Source: a virus (lineage: Duplodnaviria > Heunggongvirae > Uroviricota > Caudoviricetes). Taken from it: DNA of 11,688 nucleotides. Positions 1-11,688 of the stretch are shown piece by piece (positions within the stretch are counted from its first letter, which is position 1; each line of letters begins with the position of its first letter). The position numbers and the translations under genes are program-made. Under the pieces are notes generated by a model. That model did not search any database. It was not told the origin of the DNA and was given only the letters and a program-made list of their open reading frames with translations. The stretch is taken from the IMG/VR virus record IMGVR_UViG_3300011888_000006. The stretch is one strand, 5' to 3'.

Positions 1-66
1 TTTTTTGATTTCAGAATTAGCCTGACGGGCAATGCTGCGAAGGGCGTTTTCCTGCTGAGGTGTCAT
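1..66 (-). CDS. Hypothetical protein, 5' end only (first 22 codons MTPQQENALRSIARQANSEIKK; gene runs off the window start)
   Basis: Minus-strand ATG at 66..64 overlaps the TGA of the upstream micro-ORF (ATGA arrangement); frame stays open to position 1. No recognisable family from 22 residues. Confidence 0.35.
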   Translation of the reverse strand, partial: MTPQQENALRSIARQANSEIKK

Positions 67-146
67 TGAACAAGTCCCATGTCGGCAAGCATAAGCACAC
101 AGAATATGAAGCCCGCTGCCAGAAAAATGCATTCCGTGGTTGTCAT
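63..146 (-). CDS. 27-aa hydrophobic micro-protein (MTTTECIFLAAGFIFCVLMLADMGLVQ), putative single-pass membrane peptide
   Basis: Below the ORF-track size cutoff. Its ATG (146..144) overlaps the methyltransferase TGA and its TGA (65..63) overlaps the next ATG, so it is sandwiched by two ATGA couplings. Hydrophobic core of about 20 residues. Confidence 0.35.
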   Translation of the reverse strand: MTTTECIFLAAGFIFCVLMLADMGLVQ

Positions 147-700
147 GCAGCCTCCCGACGGGCAAGAATCCTTGAGCCGAACGCCATCAACTCTCCACGA
201 TCAACGGTCGTAAAGTGGCAGTGTGTACGGGGGTATGGGTGCCAGATAATGAGCATCGAGCCTTTATTATTTCCACTGACGGGTTTCTCAGTGAGTGGGT
301 TAATAAATGCCAGTCGTCCTGCCGTGATGAATCTGACCTCACTGGCGGTTTGTATCGCTTCATGAAACCATCCGACAGATGTGTCAGCAGGCAATAACAT
401 TACACATCCCACACTACTGAATTTGTTTTCAGTGGCTGCCTTTTTCACAAAAGGGGAAATATTGCTGTATGGTGGATTCAACCAGACATAACCAGAGGCA
501 TATCCCATTGCTTCAGGCCATGAAGTGGTTAATGTGTTCTGCTCCTGTGAGATAAAAAGCCGACATAGTCGGTTTTTTTCGCTGGCGGCAGCATCAAGTT
601 GAAAAACGAACTCTGCATTAAGCGCAGCAAAAATCTCTGGTGGTGTACGCCAGCTGTCGCGATGTTCGGCAGGAGTATTGCTTCCGGTGAAATCAGTCAT
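143..700 (-). CDS. Phage-type DNA N6-adenine methyltransferase (Dam-like orphan MTase)
   Basis: 185-aa ORF with the catalytic NPPY motif (WLNPPYS) and an N-terminal WRTPPEIF segment typical of phage Dam-family methyltransferases. Sits downstream of exo in the leftward operon. Confidence 0.85.
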   Translation of the reverse strand: MTDFTGSNTPAEHRDSWRTPPEIFAALNAEFVFQLDAAASEKNRLCRLFISQEQNTLTTSWPEAMGYASGYVWLNPPYSNISPFVKKAATENKFSSVGCVMLLPADTSVGWFHEAIQTASEVRFITAGRLAFINPLTEKPVSGNNKGSMLIIWHPYPRTHCHFTTVDRGELMAFGSRILARREAA

Positions 701-850
701 ACAGCCCCCGTTTATTATTTATCTCCTCAGCCAGCCGCTGTGCTTTCAGGGGATTTCGGATAACAGAAAGGCCGGGAAATATCCAGCCTCGCTTTGTAAC
801 GGAGTAGACGAAAGTGATCGTGCCTACCCGGATATTATCGTGAGGATGCT

Positions 851-1531
851 TCATCGCCATTGCTCCCCAAATACAAAACCAATTTCAGCCAGTGCCTCGT
901 CCATTTTTTCGATGAACTCCGGCACCATCTCGTCAAAACTCGCCATGTACTTTTCATCCCGCTCAACCACGACATAATGCAGGCCTTCACGCTTCATACG
1001 CGGGTCATAGTTGGCAAAGTACCAGGCATCTTTTCGCGTCACCCACATGCTGTACTGCACCTGGGCCATGTAAGCCGACTTTATGGCCTCGAAACCACCG
1101 AGCCGGAACTTCATGAAATCCCGGGAGGTAAACGGGCATTTCAGCTCAAGGCCATTGCCGTCACTGCATAAACCATCGGGAGAGCAGGCGGTGCGCATAC
1201 TTTCGTCGCGATAGATGATCGGGGATTCAATAACATTTACGCCGGAAGTGAACTCAAACAGGGTTCTGGCGTCGTTCTCGTACTGTTTTCCCCAGGCCAG
1301 CGCTTTAGCGTTAACTTCCGGAGCCACACCGGTGCAAACCTCAGCCAGCAGGGTGTGGAAGTAGGACATTTTCATGTCAGGCCACTTCTTTCCTGATCGG
1401 GGCTTTGCTATCACGTTGTGAACTTCTGAAGCGGTGATGACGCCGAGCCGTAATTTGTGCCATGCATCATCCCCCTGTTCGACAGCTCTCACGTCGATCC
1501 CGGTACGCTGCAGGATAATGTCCGGTGTCAT
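851..1531 (-). CDS. exo: Lambda-type exonuclease (Red alpha)
   Basis: 226-aa translation ([40 protein letters not shown]...GEQWR) is near-identical to phage lambda Exo as I recall it. Its start overlaps the bet stop (ATGA). Confidence 0.95.
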
Positions 1532-2313
1532 GCTGCCACCTTCTGCTCAGTGGCTTTCTGTTTCAGGAATCCAAGAGCTTTCACTGCTTCGGCCTGTGTC
1601 AGTTCTGACGATGCGCGAATGTCGCGGCGAAATATCTGGGAACAGAGCGGCAATAAGTCGTCATCCCATGTTTTATCCAGGGCGATCAGCAGAGTGTTAA
1701 TCTCCTGCATGGTTTCATCGTTAACCGGAGTGATGTCGCGTTCTGGCTGACGTTCTGCAGTGTATGCAGTATTTTCGACAATGCGCTCGGCTTCATCCTT
1801 GTCATAGATACCAGCAAATCCGAAGGCCAGACGGGCACACTGAATCATGGCTTTATGCCGTAACATCCGTTTGGGATGCGACTGCCACGGCCCCGTGATT
1901 TCTCTGCCTTCGCGGGTTTTGAATGGTTCGCGGCGGCATTCATCCATCCATTCGGTAACGCAGATCGGATGATTACGGTCCTTGCGGTAAATCCGGCATG
2001 TACAGGATTCATTGTCCTGCTCAAAGTCCATGCCATCAAACTGCTGGTTTTCATTGATGATGCGGGACCAGCCATCAACGCCCACCACCGGAACAATGCC
2101 GTTCTGCTTATCAGGGAAGGCGTAAATTTCTTTCGTCCACGGATTAAGGCCGTACTGGTTGGCGACGATCAACAATGCGATGAACTGCGCATCGCTGGCA
2201 TCACCTTTAAATGCCGTCTGGCGAAGAGTGGTGATCAGTTCCTGTGGGTCGACAGAATCCATGCCGACACGTTCAGCCAGCTTCCCTGCCAGCGTTGCGA
2301 GTGCTGTACTCAT
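1528..2313 (-). CDS. bet: Lambda-type single-strand annealing protein (Red beta)
   Basis: 261-aa translation ([48 protein letters not shown]...) matches lambda Bet from memory; gam-bet-exo order conserved. Confidence 0.95.
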
Positions 2314-2318
2314 CCGTT

Positions 2319-2615
2319 TTATACCTCTGAATCAATATCAAACTGGTGGTGAGCAATGGTTTCAACCATGTACCGGATGTGTTCTGCCATGCGCTCCTGA
2401 AACTCAACATCGTCATCAAACGCACGGGTAATGGCTTTTTTGCAGGCCCCGCAGCGTTGCAAATGATCGATACAGAGTGATTCAAACAGGTGCTGTGGAA
2501 GACCTTTTTCCATGTCGTCTGCCAGTTCTGCCTCTTTCTCTTCACGGGCGATCTGCTGGTAGTGACGCGCCCAGCTTTGAGCCTCAAGACGATCCTGAAT
2601 GTAATAAGCGTTCAT
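2319..2615 (-). CDS. gam: Gam, RecBCD inhibitor (short 98-aa form)
   Basis: Translation [52 protein letters not shown]...IDSEV matches the lambda GamS region. AGGAG lies 7 nt upstream of the ATG on the minus strand. Confidence 0.9.
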
Positions 2616-2690
2616 GGCTGAACTCCTGAAAATGGCTGTGAAAATATCGCCCGCGAAATGCCAGGCTGATTAGGAAAACAGGAAAGGGGA

Positions 2691-2981
2691 TTAGTGATTC
2701 AGGCCGTTACCGCGTCCGTCGAGGAAAACTTCCACGAGCAAATCACGGGTATAAGTGCGCTCGATGCTGCGATGCAGATATAGCCGTCCGCGTAAATTAG
2801 CTGATGCAGTCCAGGTACCATCTTTGTGTTTGACCAGCATTCCTGGCATGACCGCACCTCGATTAACGGTCTGAGTTCCGTAATGTTGATGAACCATAAA
2901 AACTCCTGCCCGTAAGCTGGGCTGCTGAACATATAGAGACTTCTGCGCGTATTCAGGCGGTGGATGGCCGCCGGTTGTCAT
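2691..2981 (-). CDS. Hypothetical protein in the kil/cIII position of the leftward operon (96 aa; alternative 68-aa form starting at 2897)
   Basis: Open frame between the leftward promoter and gam. The internal ATG at 2897 has a strong AGGAG 6 nt upstream, while the ATG at 2981 has only GAGG at 10 nt. No family recognised; not Arg-rich at the N terminus, so not N-like. Confidence 0.45.
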
Positions 2982-3123
2982 AACTAAGCCGCCTCGTTGA
3001 AGCGACTGAGGTATGAGGTGTTGAGTTGAGTTGATTTCAGCTGGTCACACCGACGTTCACGCGTCCGTTTCACCCCTCGCACTCCCCGGAGCCTGCCGAA
3101 ATTCAAGCTGCGGATCTAAGCGG

Positions 3124-3175
3124 TCATCGCAACGGTGAATCAGGTAGTTGCCGTATCGTTGTGTTGTTGCGATGA
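3124..3175 (-). promoter_or_regulatory. 10-bp perfect inverted repeat (3124-3133 / 3166-3175) with a 32-nt loop at the 5' end of the leftward early transcript
   Basis: TCATCGCAAC ... GTTGCGATGA read directly from the sequence. It lies immediately downstream of the predicted leftward promoter, so it would be the first about 50 nt of that RNA. Confidence 0.4.
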
Positions 3176-3240
3176 ACTTATTTAAAACTATAGTTGTTTT
3201 ATCGTCAACAACAAAAGTTGTTTTATTGGTTGTTTTAGAT
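3176..3240 (-). promoter_or_regulatory. Leftward early promoter (pL-like) with operator-like AACAAC/GTTGTT repeats (OL-like)
   Basis: On the minus strand TTGACG-17-TTAAAT (plus 3203-3208 and 3180-3185). The spacer ATAAAACAACTATAGTT is almost the same as the spacer of the rightward promoter. Inverted repeat AACAAC-AAAA-GTTGTT at 3207-3222, and GTTGTTTT recurs at 3193, 3217 and 3229. Confidence 0.5.
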
Positions 3241-3358
3241 ATAACTGGTTGTATTTAGGATGGATTTATTTTGTGACTTGAATCGCATAGCGATAACTGA
3301 AGCGAGGTTATGGTGGTTTTTTTAACGGTGTGTGTGATGAGGGGAGGGCAAAAGAAAA

Positions 3359-3376
3359 CCCGGCACGGTGACCGGG
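3359..3376 (-). terminator. Candidate intrinsic terminator downstream of the repressor gene
   Basis: CCCGG/CCGGG stem with an 8-nt loop; on the minus strand it is followed by TTTTCTTTTG. The stem is short (5 bp), so this is tentative. Confidence 0.3.
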
Positions 3377-3497
3377 ATTCTTACGCCGTTAGGTAAAGAT
3401 ATTATTGCGGTGGCTTAATATTACTACCTAGAGCAAAGATAGGAATTAGTTCTTTACTGAATGAGCACAATGCCCAGTTGATAATTTTTAATTGGTA

Positions 3498-4187
3498 CTA
3501 CCCATGCTTCCTATATGTCTGCGGCATGCTCCCAATAACCTTACCGAAGATGAACACCCGGTTCATCTCGTCTTTCTCGATCGGGTCCCACGGTGAGTAG
3601 CTTTTGTTATCAGAGATGACCAGCAGCTTATCCTTCATCATTTGCAGGCGCTTTACATGGGCTGTGTCGTCGTACAGAAACGCATAGATACCATCACCGT
3701 CGAAAGATTTAACTGTGATATCAACGAACAGCAGATCACCTGGTTCGATCGTTCCTGACATGCTGTCACCACGCACGTTAATGATGCGGATATTTTCCGC
3801 CTTCCTACCATCGAACATGTGACGAGCATCGTCAAACGAGTACTCAACCGAGCGTAGAACTTCTACAAACTCACGGTTGATGACTCCCGGCCCAGCACTG
3901 ACTTCTATATCAAGAACGTCAATCTTGAAGTATTTGGAATGGCTGACAGTTGATTGTATTGGTTGCACTGTACTGTCTGACATATTTCCAACGCCAGAAG
4001 ATAACCATTCTGCGCGCACACCCAAAGCGTTCGCGATCTCCACGATTTTAGTTGTTTGATTAGCTTTCCCTGTTTCGATTTTCTGAATAGCAGCCTGGCT
4101 AACCCCGACCAAATCCCCAAGCGCCTTTTGTGTAAGGCCTCGCGCTAATCTGGCTTCTTTAAGTCTTTCTGAGAGTGTTGTTTTCAT
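3498..4187 (-). CDS. cI: CI-like prophage repressor (N-terminal HTH, C-terminal S24 LexA-like autopeptidase)
   Basis: HTH segment LTQKALGDLVGVSQAAIQKIE, then an Ala-Gly site (VSAGPG), a GDSM serine motif and a HVKRL lysine, the LexA/CI self-cleavage signature. I place the start at the MKTTLSERL ATG (4187) rather than the track's 4253 start, because a TTGATG-17-TACATT promoter ends 6 nt before it. Confidence 0.85.
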   Translation of the reverse strand: MKTTLSERLKEARLARGLTQKALGDLVGVSQAAIQKIETGKANQTTKIVEIANALGVRAEWLSSGVGNMSDSTVQPIQSTVSHSKYFKIDVLDIEVSAGPGVINREFVEVLRSVEYSFDDARHMFDGRKAENIRIINVRGDSMSGTIEPGDLLFVDITVKSFDGDGIYAFLYDDTAHVKRLQMMKDKLLVISDNKSYSPWDPIEKDEMNRVFIFGKVIGSMPQTYRKHG

Positions 4188-4291
4188 AGTCCAAATGTAC
4201 AACCAAGGTTTTATTCCATCAAACGAAAATGGTTGTTGACTAAAAACAACCATAGTTTTAATCTTGATTCAAATTAACCACGGAGGTTGTT
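4188..4291. promoter_or_regulatory. Immunity switch: divergent pRM-like and pR-like promoters with operator palindromes
   Basis: 25-bp perfect palindrome ATGGTTGTT-GACTAAA-AACAACCAT at 4229-4253, overlapping a rightward TTGACT -35 (4236-4241). Leftward TTGATG (4217-4222) -17- TACATT (4194-4199) ends 6 nt before the repressor ATG. Confidence 0.6.
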
Positions 4292-4522
4292 ATGAACCCA
4301 GCTATCAAAACAGCGATCAATATCGTTGGTTCACAAAAGAAACTGGGCGCTGCTTGCGAAGTTTCACAGCAGGCCGTCTATAAGTGGCTTCACAACAAAG
4401 CAAAGGTATCCCCTGAACATGTCGGCAGCATTGTTACGGCTACTGGTGGAGTAGTGAAGGCATACCAGATTCGCCCGGATCTTCCGAAGTTGTTTCCACA
4501 CACCGAAAAGAACGCAGCTTAA
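4292..4522 (+). CDS. cro: Cro-like small HTH regulator (YdaS/Cro family)
   Basis: 76 aa, first gene of the rightward operon. HTH segment LGAACEVSQQAVYKW; GGAGG 6 nt upstream of the ATG. Confidence 0.8.
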   Translation: MNPAIKTAINIVGSQKKLGAACEVSQQAVYKWLHNKAKVSPEHVGSIVTATGGVVKAYQIRPDLPKLFPHTEKNAA

Positions 4523-4591
4523 ATTTCCATTTCACGCTCTTTAACAATAAGCAATCAACTTAACAGTCAATTCAAACTAAAGGAGTCAATT

Positions 4592-5131
4592 ATGCAACCA
4601 CTTACATACCAACAGACTAGCGGATTTAGCCCGACTGCGGTGATAAATCGTTCTCAAACAAAACAGGTGCCAGGCCACGAAAAAATCCGTGATGCCGTCC
4701 GCGCCTGGTCGGCTGTAGATAATCAGGATGTCGTTGCCACACTCATTGTGAATGAGTATCGGGAGCAGGGCGGCGGCACCATCGATTTCCCTGATGATGT
4801 CAGCCGTGCACGCCAGAAGCTGTTCCGCTTCCTCGATAACAAATTCGATTCTGAAAAATACCGAAATAACGTGCGTGAACTGACCCCGGCAATTCTGGCG
4901 GTACTACCGCTGGAATATCGCGGTTACCTGGTTGAGCAGGATAGCTTCATGGCTAGGTTGGCTGAAATGGAAAAGGAACTCAGTGAGGCAAAACAGGCTG
5001 TCATTCTCAACGCACCACGCCACCAGAAACTGAAGGAAATTAGTGAAGGTATTGTGTCGATGTTTCGTGTGGACCCAGATCTGGCTGGTCCATTGATGGC
5101 GATGGTTACTACCATGCTGGGGGCGATATGA
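4592..5131 (+). CDS. YdaT-family protein in the cII position (likely CII functional analogue)
   Basis: 179 aa directly after cro, with AGGAG 7 nt upstream. Segments EYREQGGG and LTPAILAVLP resemble Rac YdaT as I recall it; family assignment is from memory only. Confidence 0.6.
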   Translation: MQPLTYQQTSGFSPTAVINRSQTKQVPGHEKIRDAVRAWSAVDNQDVVATLIVNEYREQGGGTIDFPDDVSRARQKLFRFLDNKFDSEKYRNNVRELTPAILAVLPLEYRGYLVEQDSFMARLAEMEKELSEAKQAVILNAPRHQKLKEISEGIVSMFRVDPDLAGPLMAMVTTMLGAI

Positions 5132-5217
5132 CAGGTTCAGAAATGGCGAAAGCCGGTCTGCTGGAACAGAACCGACTTTCAGGTGCAAATCGTAACACAC
5201 TCATTGCGGGAGGAATT

Positions 5218-6164
5218 ATGGCAAACACTGCTGAGATATTCAATTTTCCAGTGCCGGATGCGGCACAAAAGGAGCCGCGCGTGGCAGATCTCGATGATGG
5301 TTATACGCGCATTGCAAATGAGTTGCTGGAAGCTGTGATGCTGGCCGGATTAACACAGCACCAGCTTCTGGTCTTTCTGGCTGTCATGCGCAAAACATAT
5401 GGCTTTAATAAAAAACTGGATTGGGTTAGCAACGAGCAACTTTCCGAATTAACCGGGATATTGCCGCACAAGTGTTCTGCTGCAAAAAGTGTTCTGGTAA
5501 AGCGTGGGATTTTTATTCAGAGCGGGCGGAATACCGGCATTAATAATGTGGTCAGTGAATGGTCAACATTACCCGAATCAGGTAAGAAAAATAAAGTTTA
5601 CCTGAAAGAGGTAAATTTACCTGAATCAGGTAAAAAAAGTTTACCCAAATCAGGTAAAGGCGTTTACCCGAATCAGGTAAACACAAAAGACAAACTAACA
5701 AAAGACAATATAAAACCTTTTTCGTCCGAGAATTCTGGCGAATCCTCNNNNNNNNNNAATCCTCTGACCAACCAGAAAACGATCTTCCTGTGGTGAAACC
5801 GGATGCTGCAATTCAGAGCGGCAGCAAGTGGGGGACAGCAGAAGACCTGACCGCCGCAGAGTGGATGTTTGACATGGTGAAGACCATCGCGCCATCAGCC
5901 AGAAAACCGAATTTTGCAGGGTGGGCTAACGATATCCGCCTGATGCGTGAACGTGACGGACGTAACCACCGCGACATGTGCGTGCTGTTCCGCTGGGCAT
6001 GCCAGGACAACTTCTGGTCCGGTAACGTGCTAAGTCCGGCCAAACTCCGCGACAAGTGGACCCAGCTCGAAATCAACCGTAACAAGCAACAGGCAGGCAT
6101 GATAGCCAGCAAACCAAAACTCGACCTGACAAACACTGACTGGATTTACGGGGTGGATTTATGA
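5218..6164 (+). CDS. O: Replication initiator O (lambda O family), interrupted by a 10-N scaffold gap
   Basis: N terminus MANTAEIFNFP...VADLDDGY and C terminus ...WANDIRLMRERDGRNHRDMCVLFRWACQDNFWSGNVLSPAKL...DLTNTDWIYGVDL match lambda O from memory. GGGAGG upstream of 5218. The two track ORFs (5128..5796 and 5790..6164) are the same gene split by the gap. Confidence 0.8.
5569..5680 (+). repeat. Replication origin iterons inside O: five 17-bp palindromic repeats TTACC(C/T)(G/A)AA(T/A)(C/G)AGGTAA, followed by an AT-rich tract
   Basis: Copies at 5569-5585, 5598-5614 (degenerate), 5617-5633, 5641-5657 and 5664-5680, then an A/T-rich stretch at 5681-5730. Same layout as lambda ori inside O. Confidence 0.7.
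5748..5757. other. Assembly gap (10 N) with 7-bp overlapping flanks
   Basis: Left flank ends AATCCTC and right flank begins AATCCTC. Collapsing the overlap removes 17 nt and puts both halves of O in one frame. Confidence 0.9.
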
Positions 6165-6862
6165 AAAACATCGCCGCACAGATGGTTAACTTTGACCGTG
6201 AGCAGATGCGTCGGATCGCCAACAACATGCTGGAACAGTACGACGAAAAGCCGCAGGTACAGCAGGTAGCGCAGATCATCAACGGTGTGTTCAGCCAGTT
6301 ACTGGCAACTTTCCCGGCGAGTCTGGCTAACCGTGACCAGAACGAACTGAACGAAATCCGCCGCCAGTGGGTTCTGGCTTTCCGGGAAAACGGGATCACC
6401 ACAATGGAACAGGTTAACGCAGGAATGCGCGTAGCCCGTCGGCAGAATCGACCATTTCTGCCATCACCCGGGCAGTTTGTTGCATGGTGCCGGGAAGAAG
6501 CATCCGTTATCGCCGGACTGCCAAACGTCAGCGAGCTGGTTGATATGGTTTACGAGTATTGCCGGAAGCGTGGCCTGTATCCGGATGCAGAGTCTTATCC
6601 GTGGAAATCGAACGCGCATTACTGGTTGGTTACCAACTTGTACCAGAACATGCGGGCCAATGCGCTGACTGACGCGGAATTACGGCGCAAGGCTGCCGAT
6701 GAACTGACCTGTATGACAGCGCGAATTAACCGTGGTGAGACGATACCTGAACCAGTAAAACAACTTCCTGTTATGGGCGGTAGACCTCTAAATCGTGCAC
6801 AGGCTCTGGCGAAGATCGCAGAAATTAAAGCTAAGTTCGGACTGAAAGGAGCAAGTGTATGA
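6161..6862 (+). CDS. P: Replication protein P (DnaB helicase loader)
   Basis: 233-aa translation MKNIAAQMVNFDREQMRRIANNMLEQYDEKPQVQQVAQIING... is near-identical to lambda P from memory. ATGA overlap with the O stop. Confidence 0.95.
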   Translation: MKNIAAQMVNFDREQMRRIANNMLEQYDEKPQVQQVAQIINGVFSQLLATFPASLANRDQNELNEIRRQWVLAFRENGITTMEQVNAGMRVARRQNRPFLPSPGQFVAWCREEASVIAGLPNVSELVDMVYEYCRKRGLYPDAESYPWKSNAHYWLVTNLYQNMRANALTDAELRRKAADELTCMTARINRGETIPEPVKQLPVMGGRPLNRAQALAKIAEIKAKFGLKGASV

Positions 6863-7260
6863 CGGGCAAAGAGGCAATTATTCATTACCTGGGGACGCAT
6901 AAGAGCTTCTGTGCACAGGACGTTGCCGCGGTAACAGGTGCAACCGTAACCAGCATAAATCAGGCTGCGGCTAAAATGGCGCGGGCAGGAATCCTGGTCG
7001 TTGATGGTAAGGTCTGGCGAACGGTGTATTACCGGTTTGCTACCAAGGAAGAACGGGAAGGAAAGATGNNNNNNNNNNNNNNNNNNNNNNNNNNNNNNNN
7101 NNNNNNNNNNNNNNNNNNNNNNNNNTATTACCGGTTCGCTACCAGAGAAGAACGGGAAGGAAAGGTGAGCACGAATCTGATTTTTAAGGAGTGTCGCCAG
7201 AGTGCCGCGATGAAACGGGTATTGAGGGTATATAAAAGAACATCAATGGGTACACAATGA
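6859..7260 (+). CDS. ren: Ren, interrupted by a 45-N scaffold gap with duplicated flanks
   Basis: MTGKEAIIHYLGTHKSFCAQDVAAVTGATVTSINQAAAKMARAGILVVDGKVWRTVYYRFAT... matches lambda Ren from memory. ATGA overlap with the P stop. The apparent length of 133 aa is inflated by the gap and flank duplication. Confidence 0.75.
   Translation: MTGKEAIIHYLGTHKSFCAQDVAAVTGATVTSINQAAAKMARAGILVVDGKVWRTVYYRFATKEEREGKMXXXXXXXXXXXXXXXXXXXYYRFATREEREGKVSTNLIFKECRQSAAMKRVLRVYKRTSMGTQ
7069..7113. other. Assembly gap (45 N) flanked by an imperfect 42-bp duplication
   Basis: Left TATTACCGGTTTGCTACCAAGGAAGAACGGGAAGGAAAGATG versus right TATTACCGGTTCGCTACCAGAGAAGAACGGGAAGGAAAGGTG, 4 mismatches. Removing gap plus overlap (87 nt) keeps ren in frame. 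Confidence 0.9.
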
Positions 7261-7277
7261 TGAAACAGGTGAGTTGA

Positions 7278-7312
7278 GTTCAAACTGTAGTACAATTCTC
7301 TCCAGTTTGAAC
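7278..7312. repeat. 10-bp perfect inverted repeat (GTTCAAACTG-N15-CAGTTTGAAC) between ren and emrE
   Basis: Read directly from the sequence. Lies 16 nt upstream of the emrE ATG, at the left edge of the AT-rich insertion. Confidence 0.3.
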
Positions 7313-7327
7313 AGGAAAGAATATGTT

Positions 7328-7660
7328 ATGAACCCTTATATTTATCTTGGTGGTGCAATACTTGCAGAGGTCATTGGTACAACCTTAATGAAGTTTTCAG
7401 AAGGTTTTACACGGTTATGGCCATCTGTTGGTACAATTATTTGTTATTGTGCATCATTCTGGTTATTAGCTCAGACGCTGGCTTATATTCCTACAGGGAT
7501 TGCTTATGCTATCTGGTCAGGAGTCGGTATTGTCCTGATTAGCTTACTATCATGGGGGTTTTTCGGCCAACGGCTGGACCTGCCAGCCGTTATAGGCATG
7601 ATGTTGATTTGTGCCGGTGTGTTGGTTATTAATTTATTGTCACGAAGCACACCACATTAA
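7328..7660 (+). CDS. emrE: EmrE, small multidrug resistance (SMR) efflux transporter
   Basis: 110-aa translation MNPYIYLGGAILAEVIGTTLMKFSEGFTRLWPSVGTIICYCASFWLLAQTLAYIPTGIAYAIWSGVGIVLISLLSWGFFGQRLDL... matches E. coli EmrE from memory. The track's longer 7274 start is probably not used. Confidence 0.95.
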   Translation: MNPYIYLGGAILAEVIGTTLMKFSEGFTRLWPSVGTIICYCASFWLLAQTLAYIPTGIAYAIWSGVGIVLISLLSWGFFGQRLDLPAVIGMMLICAGVLVINLLSRSTPH

Positions 7661-7904
7661 AAATAATTTCTTTTAAAAGACTGCAATATGGCGGTTCATA
7701 TCTTTACATGGGCCGCTTTTGTTAATGTTTTTAGTTTTTGTGTATTCTTTTGTGCCTTCAAGATTATTGCGTAAGCAAATTGCAATACGATTATTGTTGT
7801 ATATTCAAGATAGTGTGATCGTAATTGTCTTTTTAAATAAAAATTAAACAAAAATTATATCTCACCACTAAGGTTTATAAAAGCATACGTTAGCAGGTGT
7901 CACC

Positions 7905-9431
7905 ATGAAAAAAGCCATAGCATATATGCGATTTTCATCACTAGGTCAGATGTCTGGCGACTCATTAAACCGACAGAGAAGACTTATTGCTGAATGGTTA
8001 AAGGTAAATAGTGATTATTATCTTGATACCATAACATATGAAGATTTAGGATTAAGTGCATTCAAAGGAAAGCATGCACAATCAGGAGCTTTTTCGGAAT
8101 TTTTAGATGCTATAGAGCATGGTTATATATTGCCAGGAACTACATTGTTAGTTGAAAGTCTGGACAGACTTTCAAGAGAAAAAGTCGGTGAAGCGATTGA
8201 ACGTCTGAAATTGATTTTGAATCACGGTATTGATGTTATAACTCTTTGCGACAATACAGTCTATAATATTGACTCTTTGAATGAGCCATATTCATTAATA
8301 AAAGCCATACTTATAGCACAAAGGGCAAATGAAGAAAGCGAGATAAAGTCAAGTCGGGTTAAATTATCATGGAAGAAAAAACGGCAGGATGCACTGGAAT
8401 CAGGTACGATTATGACGGCGTCTTGTCCGAGATGGCTCTCCTTAGATGACAAAAGAACGGCTTTTGTTCCAGACCCCGACAGGGTGAAAACTATTGAGCT
8501 AATTTTTAAACTCAGGATGGAAAGGCGCTCATTGAATGCAATAGCCAAGTATTTAAATGATCATGCTGTAAAGAATTTCTCAGGAAAAGAAAGTGCATGG
8601 GGGCCTTCTGTAATTGAAAAATTATTAGCGAATAAAGCTCTGATAGGTATATGCGTACCTTCATATCGTGCAAGAGGGAAAGGGATAAGTGAAATCGCTG
8701 GCTATTATCCCAGAGTCATATCAGATGATTTGTTTTACGCTGTACAGGAAATTCGGTTGGCACCTTTTGGTATTAGCAATAGTAGCAAGAATCCTATGCT
8801 AATAAATCTACTTCGAACAGTTATGAAGTGTGAGGCTTGTGGTAATACCATGATTGTTCATGCGGTATCTGGAAGTTTGCATGGCTATTATGTTTGTCCG
8901 ATGAGAAGATTACATCGATGTGACAGGCCATCAATAAAGAGAGATTTGGTTGATTATAATATCATTAATGAATTGCTTTTTAATTGTAGCAAAATTCAAC
9001 CAGTTGAAAACAAGAAAGATGCTAATGAAACGTTAGAGTTAAAAATTATTGAGCTTCAGATGAAAATTAATAATTTAATCGTTGCATTGTCTGTCGCGCC
9101 TGAAGTTACCGCTATAGCAGAGAAAATAAGACTATTAGATAAGGAATTACGAAGAGCTTTGGTATCATTGAAAACTTTGAAGAGTAAAGGTGTAAATTCA
9201 TTCAGTGATTTTTATGCTATTGACTTAACCAGTAAAAATGGACGAGAGTTATGCCGTACACTTGCCTATAAAATATTCGAAAAAATCATAATTAATACGG
9301 ATAATAAAACCTGTGATATCTATTTTATGAATGGCATTGTTTTTAAACACTATCCTTTAATGAAAGTAATATCCGCCCAGCAGGCGATAAGTGCTCTCAA
9401 ATATATGGTTGATGGTGAGGTTTATTTTTGA
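7905..9431 (+). CDS. ybcK: Large serine recombinase (YbcK-like)
   Basis: 508 aa. N-terminal resolvase-type motif AYMRFSSLGQ with the catalytic serine, then a recombinase domain and a Cys-rich zinc ribbon (CEACGNT...YYVCP...HRCD). Strongly AT-rich coding sequence compared with the flanking genes. Confidence 0.85.
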   Translation: MKKAIAYMRFSSLGQMSGDSLNRQRRLIAEWLKVNSDYYLDTITYEDLGLSAFKGKHAQSGAFSEFLDAIEHGYILPGTTLLVESLDRLSREKVGEAIERLKLILNHGIDVITLCDNTVYNIDSLNEPYSLIKAILIAQRANEESEIKSSRVKLSWKKKRQDALESGTIMTASCPRWLSLDDKRTAFVPDPDRVKTIELIFKLRMERRSLNAIAKYLNDHAVKNFSGKESAWGPSVIEKLLANKALIGICVPSYRARGKGISEIAGYYPRVISDDLFYAVQEIRLAPFGISNSSKNPMLINLLRTVMKCEACGNTMIVHAVSGSLHGYYVCPMRRLHRCDRPSIKRDLVDYNIINELLFNCSKIQPVENKKDANETLELKIIELQMKINNLIVALSVAPEVTAIAEKIRLLDKELRRALVSLKTLKSKGVNSFSDFYAIDLTSKNGRELCRTLAYKIFEKIIINTDNKTCDIYFMNGIVFKHYPLMKVISAQQAISALKYMVDGEVYF

Positions 9432-9784
9432 GTAATAATCACTTTTTCAACCGTGCTATGGTATGAAAGTAAAGTAACTACTATGATATTAACTATCGAG
9501 CAAGAATATCCCCAGGCACTCAACAGGGCGCAGGTCAACGTGAATCGGTCATGACACGACACCGATTTTGCGGAATCAATGTTGCTTATGAATACAACAT
9601 CCCGCTTAGTACATGTTCAACACATCAGCAAATTTTGAACTGGGTGTGGCACTTAACTGAAAAAACATGGATGACACAAAATGTTACTCGTCGCTTCATT
9701 GAAGTAGCTTGTGGATATCACAAGCTAGACTATCGCCAATGATATTCAATTTTTGATTTTTTAGTATCAACCTTCCATAATAAT

Positions 9785-9813
9785 GTCACCGGAGCTTGAA
9801 CAACTCCGGTGAC
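9785..9813 (+). terminator. Stable hairpin (10-bp perfect stem GTCACCGGAG/CTCCGGTGAC, 9-nt loop), possible terminator closing the insertion
   Basis: Read directly from the sequence. Followed by TTCTGCGCATTT, which is only moderately U-rich, so terminator function is uncertain. Confidence 0.25.
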
Positions 9814-9837
9814 TTCTGCGCATTTAAGGGGACTTAA

Positions 9838-9936
9838 ATGCGACCACAATCTGAACTCCTTACCTTGTCACAGATGCAGAAATGCACCTGCGATGTCTTG
9901 CATCCAGCGTTTGATCTCTGCGGAGGTGAAGCGTGA
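9838..9936 (+). CDS. ylcH: 32-aa micro-ORF ([32 protein letters not shown]), YlcH-like small protein
   Basis: Below the track cutoff. AGGGGA 7 nt upstream; its TGA overlaps the GTG start of ybcN (GTGA). Same position and size as DLP12 ylcH by recollection. Confidence 0.4.
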
Positions 9937-10388
9937 ACCTCCCACAAGATGGCATCAAATTACATCGCGGTAACTTCACCGCTGTCGGTCAGCAGATCCA
10001 GACTTATCTGGAAGACGGCAAATGCTTTCGCATGGTTCTTAAACCGTGGCGCGAGAGACGCAGTCTTTCCCAGAATGCACTCAGCCACATGTGGTACAGC
10101 GAAATCAGTGAATACCTCATCAGCAGGGGGAAATCGTTCGCTACTTCAGCATGGGTAAAAGATGCTCTCAAACACACATACCTCGGTTATGAAACCAAGG
10201 ACCTGGTTGATGTCGTAACCGGCGAAATCACTACTATCCAGTCGTTACGCCATACCTCCGATCTTGGTACCGGAGAGATGTATGTCTTCCTGTGTAAGGT
10301 TGAAGCCTGGGCGGTGAATATTGGCTGCCACCTGACTATTCCGCAGAGCTGCGAGTTCCAGCTGCTCCGTGACAAGCAGGAGGCGTAA
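9933..10388 (+). CDS. ybcN: YbcN, NinB-family DNA-binding (base-flipping) protein
   Basis: 151 aa with GTG start and GGAGG upstream. Segment [17 protein letters not shown] resembles the NinB family; matches DLP12 YbcN by recollection. Confidence 0.85.
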
Positions 10389-10558
10389 TGGCTACACCGC
10401 TTATTCGTGTCATGAACGGACACATCTACAGAGTATCAAATCGTCGTAAGCGTAAGCCTGAGCCGAAGCCATCCGAAATACCAACACTGCTCGGATATAC
10501 CGCTAGCCTGGTTGATAAAAAATGGTTGCGACTGGCAGCAAGGAGGAATCATGGCTGA
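10388..10558 (+). CDS. ninE: NinE-family small protein (56 aa)
   Basis: [56 protein letters not shown]. Its ATG overlaps the ybcN TAA (TAATG). Below the ORF-track size cutoff. Confidence 0.75.
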   Translation: MATPLIRVMNGHIYRVSNRRKRKPEPKPSEIPTLLGYTASLVDKKWLRLAARRNHG

Positions 10559-10841
10559 TTTGAGAAAAGCAGCGCGTGGTCGGGAATGCCAGGTAAGAAT
10601 CCCTGGCGTATGTAATGGCAATTCTGAAACGTCTGTACTGGCACATATCCGGCTGGCTGGATTGTGCGGTACCGGTATCAAACCGCCAGACCTGATTGCC
10701 ACCATTGCATGTTCTGCCTGCCACGACGAAATCGACCGCCGCACACATTTTGTCGATGCTGCATATGCAAAAGAATGCGCGCTGGAAGGTATGGCGAGAA
10801 CACAGGTTATTTGGCTGAAAGAGGGGGTTATTAAGGCGTGA
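10551..10841 (+). CDS. ybcO: YbcO-family protein (96 aa; putative nuclease, Cys-rich)
   Basis: Start [23 protein letters not shown] with AGGAGG 5 nt upstream. I use the internal ATG at 10551 rather than the track's 10512. Overlaps the ninE stop. Confidence 0.8.
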
Positions 10842-11200
10842 ATACCTACAGCATCACATTACCCTGGCCTCCGAGCAATAATCGCTATTACCGCCATAAT
10901 CGCGGGCGCACGCACATCAGCGCAGAAGGGCAGGCATACCGCGATAACGTCACCCGAATCATTAAAAACGCAATGCTGGATATCGGCCTGGCTATGCCAG
11001 TGAAAATCCGTATTGAGTGCCACATGCCGGATCGCCGTCGCCGTGACCTGGATAATCTGCAAAAAGCCGCTTTTGACGCACTCACCAAAGCAGGTTTCTG
11101 GCTGGATGATGCTCAGGTCGTTGATTACCGCGTTGTGAAGATGCCTGTTACCAAAGGTGGGAGGCTGGAACTGACCATCACCGAAATGGGGAATGAATGA
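10838..11200 (+). CDS. rusA: RusA Holliday-junction resolvase
   Basis: 120-aa translation [38 protein letters not shown]... matches E. coli RusA from memory. GTG start overlapping the ybcO stop (GTGA). Confidence 0.95.
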
Positions 11201-11337
11201 TGTTTGAGTTTTATATGGCAGAACTTCTTCGCCACCGCTGGGGGCATCTGCGCTTATATCGTTTCCCCGGTTCTGTTTTGACCGATTACCGAATACTGAA
11301 GAATTACGCCAAAACCCTGACAGGAGCAGGAGTATGA
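11197..11337 (+). CDS. ylcG: YlcG-like 46-aa protein
   Basis: [46 protein letters not shown]; start overlaps the rusA stop (ATGA). Below the ORF-track cutoff. Confidence 0.55.
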
Positions 11338-11422
11338 AGTCAGAGATAACAATCAACTAATACTGTTTTGTTGATTTTTGCTTGTAATTGGCGTTCTGGT
11401 CTGATTTTTGTGGAGTAAGTTG

Positions 11423-11688
11423 ATGCGTGATATTCAGATGGTTTTAGAGCGTTGGGGCAGTTGGGCTGCGAACGACAGTTCCGGAGTCGATTACTCACAT
11501 ATAGCGGCTGGCTTTAAGGGGTTGTTACCACCAACAGGGAAGTCTCGTCCATCCTGTACTGACGACGACGGGCTGATTATTGAGAGCTGCCTGGCACGTT
11601 TGCAGAAGAAGAAGCCAAATGAGCATTCTCTGCTCGTGGCGCATTACCTGTATGGCATTTCCAAGCGCAGCATAGCGCGAGCCAGGAA
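11423..11688 (+). CDS. quuD: Late-gene antiterminator Q (phage 82 / QuuD type), 5' part only; continues past the window end
   Basis: MRDIQMVLERWGSWAANDSSGVDYSHIAAGFKGLLPP... matches 82-type Q / DLP12 QuuD N terminus by recollection. GGAG upstream. No stop within the window. Confidence 0.8.
   Translation, partial: MRDIQMVLERWGSWAANDSSGVDYSHIAAGFKGLLPPTGKSRPSCTDDDGLIIESCLARLQKKKPNEHSLLVAHYLYGISKRSIARAR

Follow-up and report, generated by a model that had tools for sequence, protein, structure and literature searches.

Lambdoid phages are known to carry morons, or mosaic slots, in which an AT-rich insert lies between backbone genes and the cargo differs among relatives. In the DLP12 prophage of Escherichia coli K-12, one such interval contains emrE, which encodes a multidrug efflux transporter, and ybcK, which encodes a large serine recombinase, in the order renD-emrE-ylcJ-ybcK-ybcL-ybcM-ylcH-ybcN. 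Records of O157:H7 strains annotate the same genes as "multidrug resistance protein" or emrE and as "phage recombinase" or ybcK (Sakai and UTME-1 annotation). Here, we analyzed this arrangement in the Caudoviricetes record IMGVR_UViG_3300011888_000006 of IMG/VR. The window, meaning the whole stretch of 11,688 nt, is the early region of a lambdoid prophage and reads exo/bet-like genes, cI, cro, a cII-like gene, O, P, ren, emrE, ybcK, ylcH, ybcN, ninE, ybcO, and rusA. A sequence-only reading had described an AT-rich, probably separately acquired stretch between ren and the nin-type genes, in which an intact recombinase could mobilize the efflux gene. We consider it likely that positions 7225 to 9750 represent one allele of a hypervariable accessory slot between ren and ylcH, made of three pieces with separate histories, and that YbcK is not the mover of this block.

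The slot and its flanks in DLP12 are as in the window, and emrE-ylcJ-ybcK is 97.7% identical over window positions 7126 to 9440. The two ybcK genes differ by 10 nucleotides, resulting in 4 amino acid changes, and the EmrE proteins differ by two amino acids. However, DLP12 is integrated at argU, carries an IS3 insertion sequence (IS) in ren, and holds 1,869 bp with ybcL-ybcM at the place of 335 unrelated bp (9441-9775) in the window. Closer still are the icd prophages of O157:H7 strains, including Sakai Sp8 (ECs_1613-ECs_1616), which carry the same allele in an identical gene order from ren to Q, with 98.9-99.7% identity from ren to the Q side; in Sakai, the 335 bp are 100% identical. Sp8 differs in having lost the exo/bet/cI/cro part that is kept in the window and in a ren gene of 303 bp as compared to 402 bp. 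Judged by its sequence, the AT-rich stretch is the known emrE-ybcK accessory block of E. coli lambda-like prophages in its O157 Sp8 form, already known and annotated.

To place the block in the species, 5,426 complete E. coli genomes were searched for the block, ybcK, emrE, and the junctions. We found ybcK in 1,424 genomes, that is, a quarter of them, with 1,398 copies nearly full-length, and at least 80% of the whole block in 1,399. Therefore, ybcK in E. coli lies practically always beside emrE, in a fixed context. The block occurs in prophages at two integration sites, argU (K-12) and icd (Sakai Sp8), each with its own tyrosine integrase. The 335 bp that follow ybcK in the window were present in 307 complete genomes, and the 16 of these that were listed are mostly O157:H7. 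The block is also carried by eleven isolated, viable lambdoid phages (12 records): Turner, PhiR70_1/PhiR68_2/PhiR34_1, Perceval, 4A7, Lambda_4C10, 1W, 3W, D2, and PhiR47_2 have ren-emrE-(ylcJ)-ybcK at the same place, with YbcK 97.6-99.4% identical. These phages differ in the cargo past ybcK, which consists of an rha fragment with small open reading frames (ORFs) in Turner, of ybcL-ybcM in PhiR70_1, and of an alpha/beta hydrolase gene on the opposite strand in Perceval and 4A7.

The sequence-only reading had made its interpretation depend on a compositional shift, and the computed GC content gives a clear one. The block (7225-9750) has 36.3% GC, while the left (1-7224) and right (9751-11688) backbone have 49.2% and 49.7%; of all 2.5-kb segments of the sequence, the one beginning at 7251 has the lowest GC. 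The ybcK coding sequence has a GC content of 35.6% and a third-codon-position GC (GC3) of 0.29, as compared to a GC3 of 0.56-0.60 in backbone genes. Because the GC break, the gene content, and the comparison with K-12 all agree, the initial observation is confirmed. The block is real, but its ends do not lie at 7261 and 9837, as had been proposed (36.4% GC between these positions), and are found instead at ~7224/7225 and ~9751. The left homology breakpoint falls inside the last 12 codons of ren, 36 bp ahead of its stop, and the right one just before a conserved promoter-like site and palindrome.

These limits were defined by two isolated phages, PhiR5_1 and PhiR30_1, which have the backbone in common with the window up to 7224 and again from the ylcH promoter (homology resumes at ~9751-9766), with unrelated genes in between. 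One of them carries small ORFs, rha, and a 168-codon ORF in the slot, and the other carries an acyltransferase and a lipoprotein gene; phages lacking the block thus hold other cargo rather than an empty site. The right border is conserved among alleles, and the phage 82 record X92588 annotates a putative -35, a -10, and a "possible regulator-binding site" there. Therefore, mosaic cargo fills the ren-ylcH interval, with the AT-rich block as one allele of this slot. The separate acquisition proposed earlier is supported by the same flanks enclosing unrelated cargo in the two phages. As in the established lambdoid morons, the insert deviates in base composition, its neighbouring backbone genes enclose other cargo in relatives, and a terminator-like hairpin follows emrE. 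In contrast to them, it is a composite with a recombinase gene and deletion scars.

The interval between the ybcK stop and the ylcH start is 406 bp long (9432-9837). As the sequence-only reading stated, ybcL and ybcM occupy this place in MG1655, and both are absent from the window. We sampled 80 IMG/VR loci with 97-100% identical YbcK; ren and emrE were upstream of ybcK wherever the flank was long enough to show them. Between the ybcK stop and the ylcH promoter, these loci fell into at least eight length classes: 1,882 bp (ybcL-ybcM, 28 loci), 1,270-1,271 bp (as in Turner, 12 loci), 1,680 bp (opposite-strand alpha/beta hydrolase, 11 loci), 1,402 bp (7 loci), 319 bp (the type of the window, 6 loci), 1,204-1,205 bp (4 loci), 1,575 bp (3 loci), and 1,213 bp (the type of locus L036, 2 loci), in addition to two longer IS-like forms with a common ~1.3-kb insert. 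All classes other than that of K-12 have the same 66 bp past the ybcK stop, followed by nested lengths of one sequence, an rha fragment of 96, 248, 356, about 450, or 516 bp. In Turner, the sequence right of the ybcK unit corresponds to rha of PhiR5_1, a gene of 750 nt, over nt 422-749, and L036 and FEX669 carry shorter parts of the Turner fragment. Therefore, the emrE-ylcJ-ybcK block once took the place of all sequence between the ren tail and mid-rha in a genome like that of PhiR5_1.

We found that the interval of the window equals the 1,213-bp L036 type minus 231 bp and 663 bp. The 231-bp deletion junction lies at 9495-9497 with a 3-bp microhomology (ATC), and the 663-bp junction at 9575-9576 with a 2-bp microhomology (AT). 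Thus, the short interval is a deletion scar of the L036 type. The earlier description of a shorter variant is correct as far as the comparison with K-12 goes; however, the interval is not the K-12 form cut down but the scar of another arrangement. The view that it holds no convincing gene was essentially right, as the sole 63-codon ORF is a fusion made by deletion, with eight codons of one frame joined to the last 55 codons of a 105-codon ORF (L036 9415-9732). This ORF matched phrog_2559 and phrog_12459, presumably families built from prophages; it matched no Pfam family and gave no tblastn match in 50,697 phage records. An integron-like exchange of cargo at a fixed site after ybcK was considered and rejected, given the nested rha-fragment lengths and the microhomology at the deletion junctions.

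Two other alleles showed features of their own in this interval. In FEX669 (L004 6274-6340), which is 99.95% identical to the Perceval locus (L021), the first 38 bp of the hydrolase cargo repeat the emrE 3' end with what lies downstream of it, and a GC-rich terminator hairpin of its own comes next. This copy seems to be left over from a second emrE allele that formerly stood convergent to the hydrolase gene. We rejected it as a target duplication, since it is far longer than the 2-bp crossover usual for serine integrases, runs into its own terminator, and is found in one class only. In K-12 (L002 7498-7756), a type-specific 260-bp spacer between ybcK and ybcL, which is absent from the window, has a small hairpin as well as a perfect inverted repeat of 11 bp (AATACGTGACA ... 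TGTCACGTATT).

Next, we evaluated the two genes of the block. EmrE belongs to the SMR family, with PF00893 covering residues 3-94 and E14 present in MNPYIYLGGAILAEV; the ratio of nonsynonymous to synonymous substitution rates (dN/dS) of emrE is 0.02-0.32. About 2,300 further complete E. coli genomes matched only 7251-7668, that is, emrE with its upstream hairpin, at ~91.6% identity; emrE is therefore much more widespread than ybcK. In two genomes examined (L012 6001-8624 and L013), this copy lies between fliE and yedK and is followed directly by ybcL-ybcM, in a decayed DLP12-like remnant with the order emrE-ybcL-ybcM-ylcH'-quuD'-nmpC'. The remnant lacks ylcJ-ybcK and has 63 bp where K-12 has ~2.1 kb. 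It adjoins an IS200/IS605 tnpA-tnpB pair in both genomes.

For YbcK, the gene content described earlier, emrE with an intact 508-aa serine recombinase bearing a catalytic serine and a zinc ribbon, was confirmed by Pfam domains and invariant residues. The catalytic domain matches PF00239 (E 6.8e-19), and the nucleophile S11 together with R9, D87, R88, and R91 is invariant in 23 family members. The Recombinase (PF07508) and zinc-ribbon (PF13408) domains follow, with C309, C312, C331, and C339 invariant between YbcK and 22 relatives. A single-sequence phmmer search with YbcK found no match among solved structures, while the family profile aligned to the recombinase, zinc-ribbon, and coiled-coil region of A118 integrase 4KIS (profile positions 190-475) and to SPbeta YokA (142-471). 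PHROG also places YbcK in an integrase family. YbcK is a large serine recombinase by architecture, with the same three domains as A118 Int, SPbeta SprA/YokA, and TP901-1 Int. However, those enzymes adjoin attP and integrate their own phage, whereas YbcK lies in the middle of the early-right operon, and the E. coli prophages, as well as a Pantoea prophage with visible ends, carry their own tyrosine integrase.

YbcK and its relatives of 40-61% identity form a clear family of ~505-522 amino acids in Enterobacterales. In Atlantibacter and Pantoea, the homologue belongs to a lambdoid prophage, in which it is flanked by the replication genes and Q, with a tyrosine integrase at the prophage end in Pantoea. 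In Yersinia, Erwinia rhapontici, and Ewingella, the gene is found after those for tail fibres at the outer prophage end, beside host genes or a neighbouring prophage, and in Kluyvera, it lies near umuC/dinI-type genes. The Citrobacter homologue is found in a transfer-gene region. This 50%-identical homologue of Citrobacter koseri (L102 6145-9530) has as its back-to-back neighbour a protein of 555 aa with a faint match to Shufflon_N (PilV-like), and the region also holds TraD and MobA genes; this arrangement could link the recombinase to pilus-tip variation. Among seven loci inspected in other genera, none had emrE beside the YbcK homologue. The relatives at prophage ends suggest that the family includes real phage integrases, and ybcK of E. 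coli may be an internalized phage integrase with a retained role.

Within E. coli, the dN/dS of ybcK between alleles is 0.07-0.18, and 79 of the 80 sampled related copies encode an intact YbcK. Thus, ybcK is under purifying selection and is not decaying. The window YbcK carries Leu13 (codon 7941-7943), two residues past the catalytic serine, where all 80 sampled E. coli-type copies have Pro13; this residue varies across the family, and the Pantoea branch normally has leucine. In a subset of O157:H7 strains, an IS1203 (IS3-family) insertion splits ybcK into two annotated pieces. The alignment with K-12 also showed an A:T to C:G compensatory change in the terminator-like hairpin at 7690-7717 and a 10-bp deletion that shortens the start of the ylcJ-like ORF. 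The literature search found no functional study of YbcK, only its domain assignment and a terminator in its leader. In K-12, this Rho/NusG-dependent terminator blocks transcription into ybcK, which rises in Rho or NusG mutants (PMC4150792). The leader terminator together with the position in the early-right operon suggests that YbcK would be produced chiefly after induction or infection, when early transcription is antiterminated and reads through. The defence-system models and Rfam gave no match, and tRNA genes were not found.

Taking these results into account, the block would comprise an emrE module (piece 1), providing a drug or cation efflux pump as lysogen cargo; a ylcJ-ybcK unit (piece 2), starting with the emrE terminator and containing a complete large serine recombinase kept intact by selection; and a ~250-bp scar (9498-9750) of two microhomology deletions (piece 3), derived from a longer arrangement of an rha fragment, small ORFs, and the 105-codon ORF. 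Such a block would have been assembled by illegitimate recombination rather than by YbcK, and would spread within phage genomes by homologous exchange in the conserved flanks, namely ren and the ylcH promoter region. The limits of piece 2 come from the comparison with the fliE locus on the left and from the alignment of the window, K-12, and FEX669 on the right.

We then weighed whether YbcK could have moved the block. The mobilization suggested by the sequence-only reading found no support, as emrE and ybcK are separable and the ends of the block lie within coding sequence, in ren on the left and, in related loci, in mid-rha on the right. No att-like ends for a recombinase were found. At the block ends, the search for terminal inverted or direct repeats that might serve as att sites gave only short AT-rich matches of chance size, and two adjacent inverted matches (8006-8036 with 9433-9472) were rejected as att ends because they are not collinear. 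Next to the YbcK homologues of eight genera, the search for a conserved non-coding motif gave only marginal scores. A synthetic junction representing excision of ylcJ-ybcK, in which the emrE 3' end is joined to the rha fragment, had no match covering the junction in the 5,426 genomes. Unlike the integrase of its own prophage, YbcK is encoded internally, between ren and the nin genes, in prophages with their own tyrosine integrases. Unlike a mobilized cassette of the Tn4451/TnpX or SCCmec/Ccr type, the block showed neither discrete shared ends and empty sites nor several unrelated target contexts, and the sampled E. coli copies all lie in the ren-nin slot. A single cassette of emrE and ybcK, excised and integrated by YbcK so that the efflux gene is mobilized by the recombinase, would be in line with the adjacency of the two genes, their linkage in essentially all ybcK-bearing E. 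coli (1,398 as compared to 1,399), their low GC, and the intact recombinase. We regard it as highly improbable, given the position of its ends, the lack of terminal repeats, the ~2,300 genomes with emrE and no ybcK, the homologues that are never beside emrE, and the same slot at every sampled locus. Alternatively, the ylcJ-ybcK unit alone may be, or have been, a minimal element with a serine recombinase, whether a mobile element of one gene or an integrase left as a fossil by a second phage, which inserted just after emrE and has since been immobile. The fliE remnant, with 63 bp between emrE and ybcL-ybcM in place of the ~2.1 kb that include ylcJ-ybcK in K-12, the outer-end position of the Yersinia, Erwinia, and Ewingella members, where integrases sit, and the PHROG assignment all point in this direction. 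However, the unit never occurs without emrE in E. coli, its excision junction is missing from all 5,426 genomes, and no non-coding site is conserved beside the gene across genera. The right limit obtained from K-12 and fliE (L002 ~7757) is 260 bp off the limit common to all alleles (L002 ~7497), and because these two estimates differ, the ends of the unit are not discrete. The fliE remnant has other deletions as well, of which the missing ybcK may be one more. We therefore consider this origin unlikely.

Four observations weigh against our preferred explanation, that of a mosaic slot allele not moved by YbcK. Serine-integrase att sites are short, imperfect palindromes with only a 2-bp crossover, too short and degenerate for a repeat search on sequence alone to exclude them. 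The + strand showed no promoter-like site ahead of either emrE or ybcK, so that the insert, unlike the lambdoid morons, has no identified promoter of its own. The emrE-ybcL-ybcM remnant at fliE, which lacks ybcK, leaves room for a discrete insertion of ylcJ-ybcK after emrE, which could once have occurred. Finally, the strong purifying selection on ybcK shows an activity of YbcK that the history of this block leaves unexplained. YbcK might be retained because it serves the phage or the host in a way that does not involve moving this block; it could provide a second route of integration, or invert or delete DNA elsewhere. The latter is what the small serine recombinases PinQ and PinR do in cryptic prophages, and a precedent is a recombinase-driven inversion that reportedly blocks phage adsorption. 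Besides selection and intactness, the presence of ybcK in viable phages, the recurrence of the P-to-Q position in Atlantibacter and Pantoea prophages, the latter with a tyrosine integrase at the prophage end, and the Rho-controlled expression in K-12 (PMC4150792) argue for it. In contrast, the 80 loci and the phage records showed no target site, invertible segment, or orientation polymorphism, and known defence-system models did not match; we consider a function of this kind quite unlikely. Within our preferred explanation, the best guess for YbcK itself is a still-functional site-specific recombinase acting at a site that is not at the block edges. It is rather improbable that the YbcK-family recombinases are active enzymes with a conserved, unrecognized target, serving as a second serine-type integration route or in a programmed rearrangement at the time of induction; were this true, the tight emrE-ybcK linkage would reflect an old site-specific insertion beside the emrE 3' end.

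The coordinates of the block and its borders are collected in Table 1.

Table 1. Features of the ren-ylcH slot and its borders in the window.
Feature	Position	Strand	Description
ren	6859..7260	+	matching records annotate it as "protein ren"; the variable block takes in its final ~12 codons (from 7225)
emrE module (mosaic piece 1)	7225..7668	+	ren 3' tail, upstream hairpin, emrE; 39.4% GC
inverted repeat	7278..7312	.	13-nt arms GTTCAAACTGTAG/CTCCAGTTTGAAC; between ren stop and emrE start
emrE	7328..7660	+	SMR multidrug efflux transporter, 110 aa; PF00893 E 2.1e-35; phrog_1395, moron category
ylcJ-ybcK unit (mosaic piece 2)	7669..9497	+	34.7% GC; common to all ybcK-bearing alleles, including 66 bp past stop
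intrinsic terminator-like hairpin, then T run	7690..7717	+	downstream of emrE; first feature of the ybcK unit
ylcJ-like small hydrophobic ORF	7725..7847 (start 7719/7725)	+	PF23688 E 4.5e-19; annotated in UTME-1
ybcK	7905..9431	+	intact large serine recombinase, 508 aa; Resolvase, Recombinase, Zn_ribbon_recom (Pfam)
remnant of rha 3' part	9495..9550	+	begins at the 231-bp deletion junction
chimeric 63-codon ORF	9551..9742	+	spans the 663-bp junction
right border of slot	9753..9813	+	upstream of ylcH; kept in all six aligned alleles
promoter-like site	9753-9781	+	TTGATT-N17-CATAAT; conserved, six alleles
palindrome	9785-9813		perfect 12-bp stem, GTCACCGGAGC...GCTCCGGTGAC; upstream of ylcH; also in L011 50-110 with the promoter-like site
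ylcH	9838..9936	+	orf33 of phage 82; first backbone gene past the slot, then ybcN

Outside the block, three other places in the window showed unusual sequence. The ren gene contains a run of 57 N (7069-7125) with a 39-bp stretch on either side, encoding the peptides YYRFATKEEREGKM and YYRFATREEREGKV; its greater length is either an in-frame ~99-bp tandem duplication or an artefact of assembly or masking. Between the leftward early genes and the cI end, ~510 bp (2984-3498) contain no ORF of at least 40 codons, have a GC content of 0.38 with a strongly positive GC skew (+0.37), and gave no Rfam match. An AT-rich dip at 5401-5850 (GC 0.39-0.40, with an N run at 5748-5757) lies in a repetitive part of the O replication gene (ESGKK... 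repeats) and is probably the origin and iteron region.

The value of this block as a discovery is small, since its genes are annotated in Sakai Sp8 and UTME-1 and its variant forms are present in ~1,400 genomes. The short form after ybcK represents a deletion scar and not a distinct functional arrangement. Our results indicate that emrE, a widely used drug-efflux gene, is transported by viable temperate phages as a passenger of phage recombination rather than as part of a recombinase-driven resistance cassette, while YbcK, a large serine recombinase that a quarter of the complete E. coli genomes encode, is maintained by selection.

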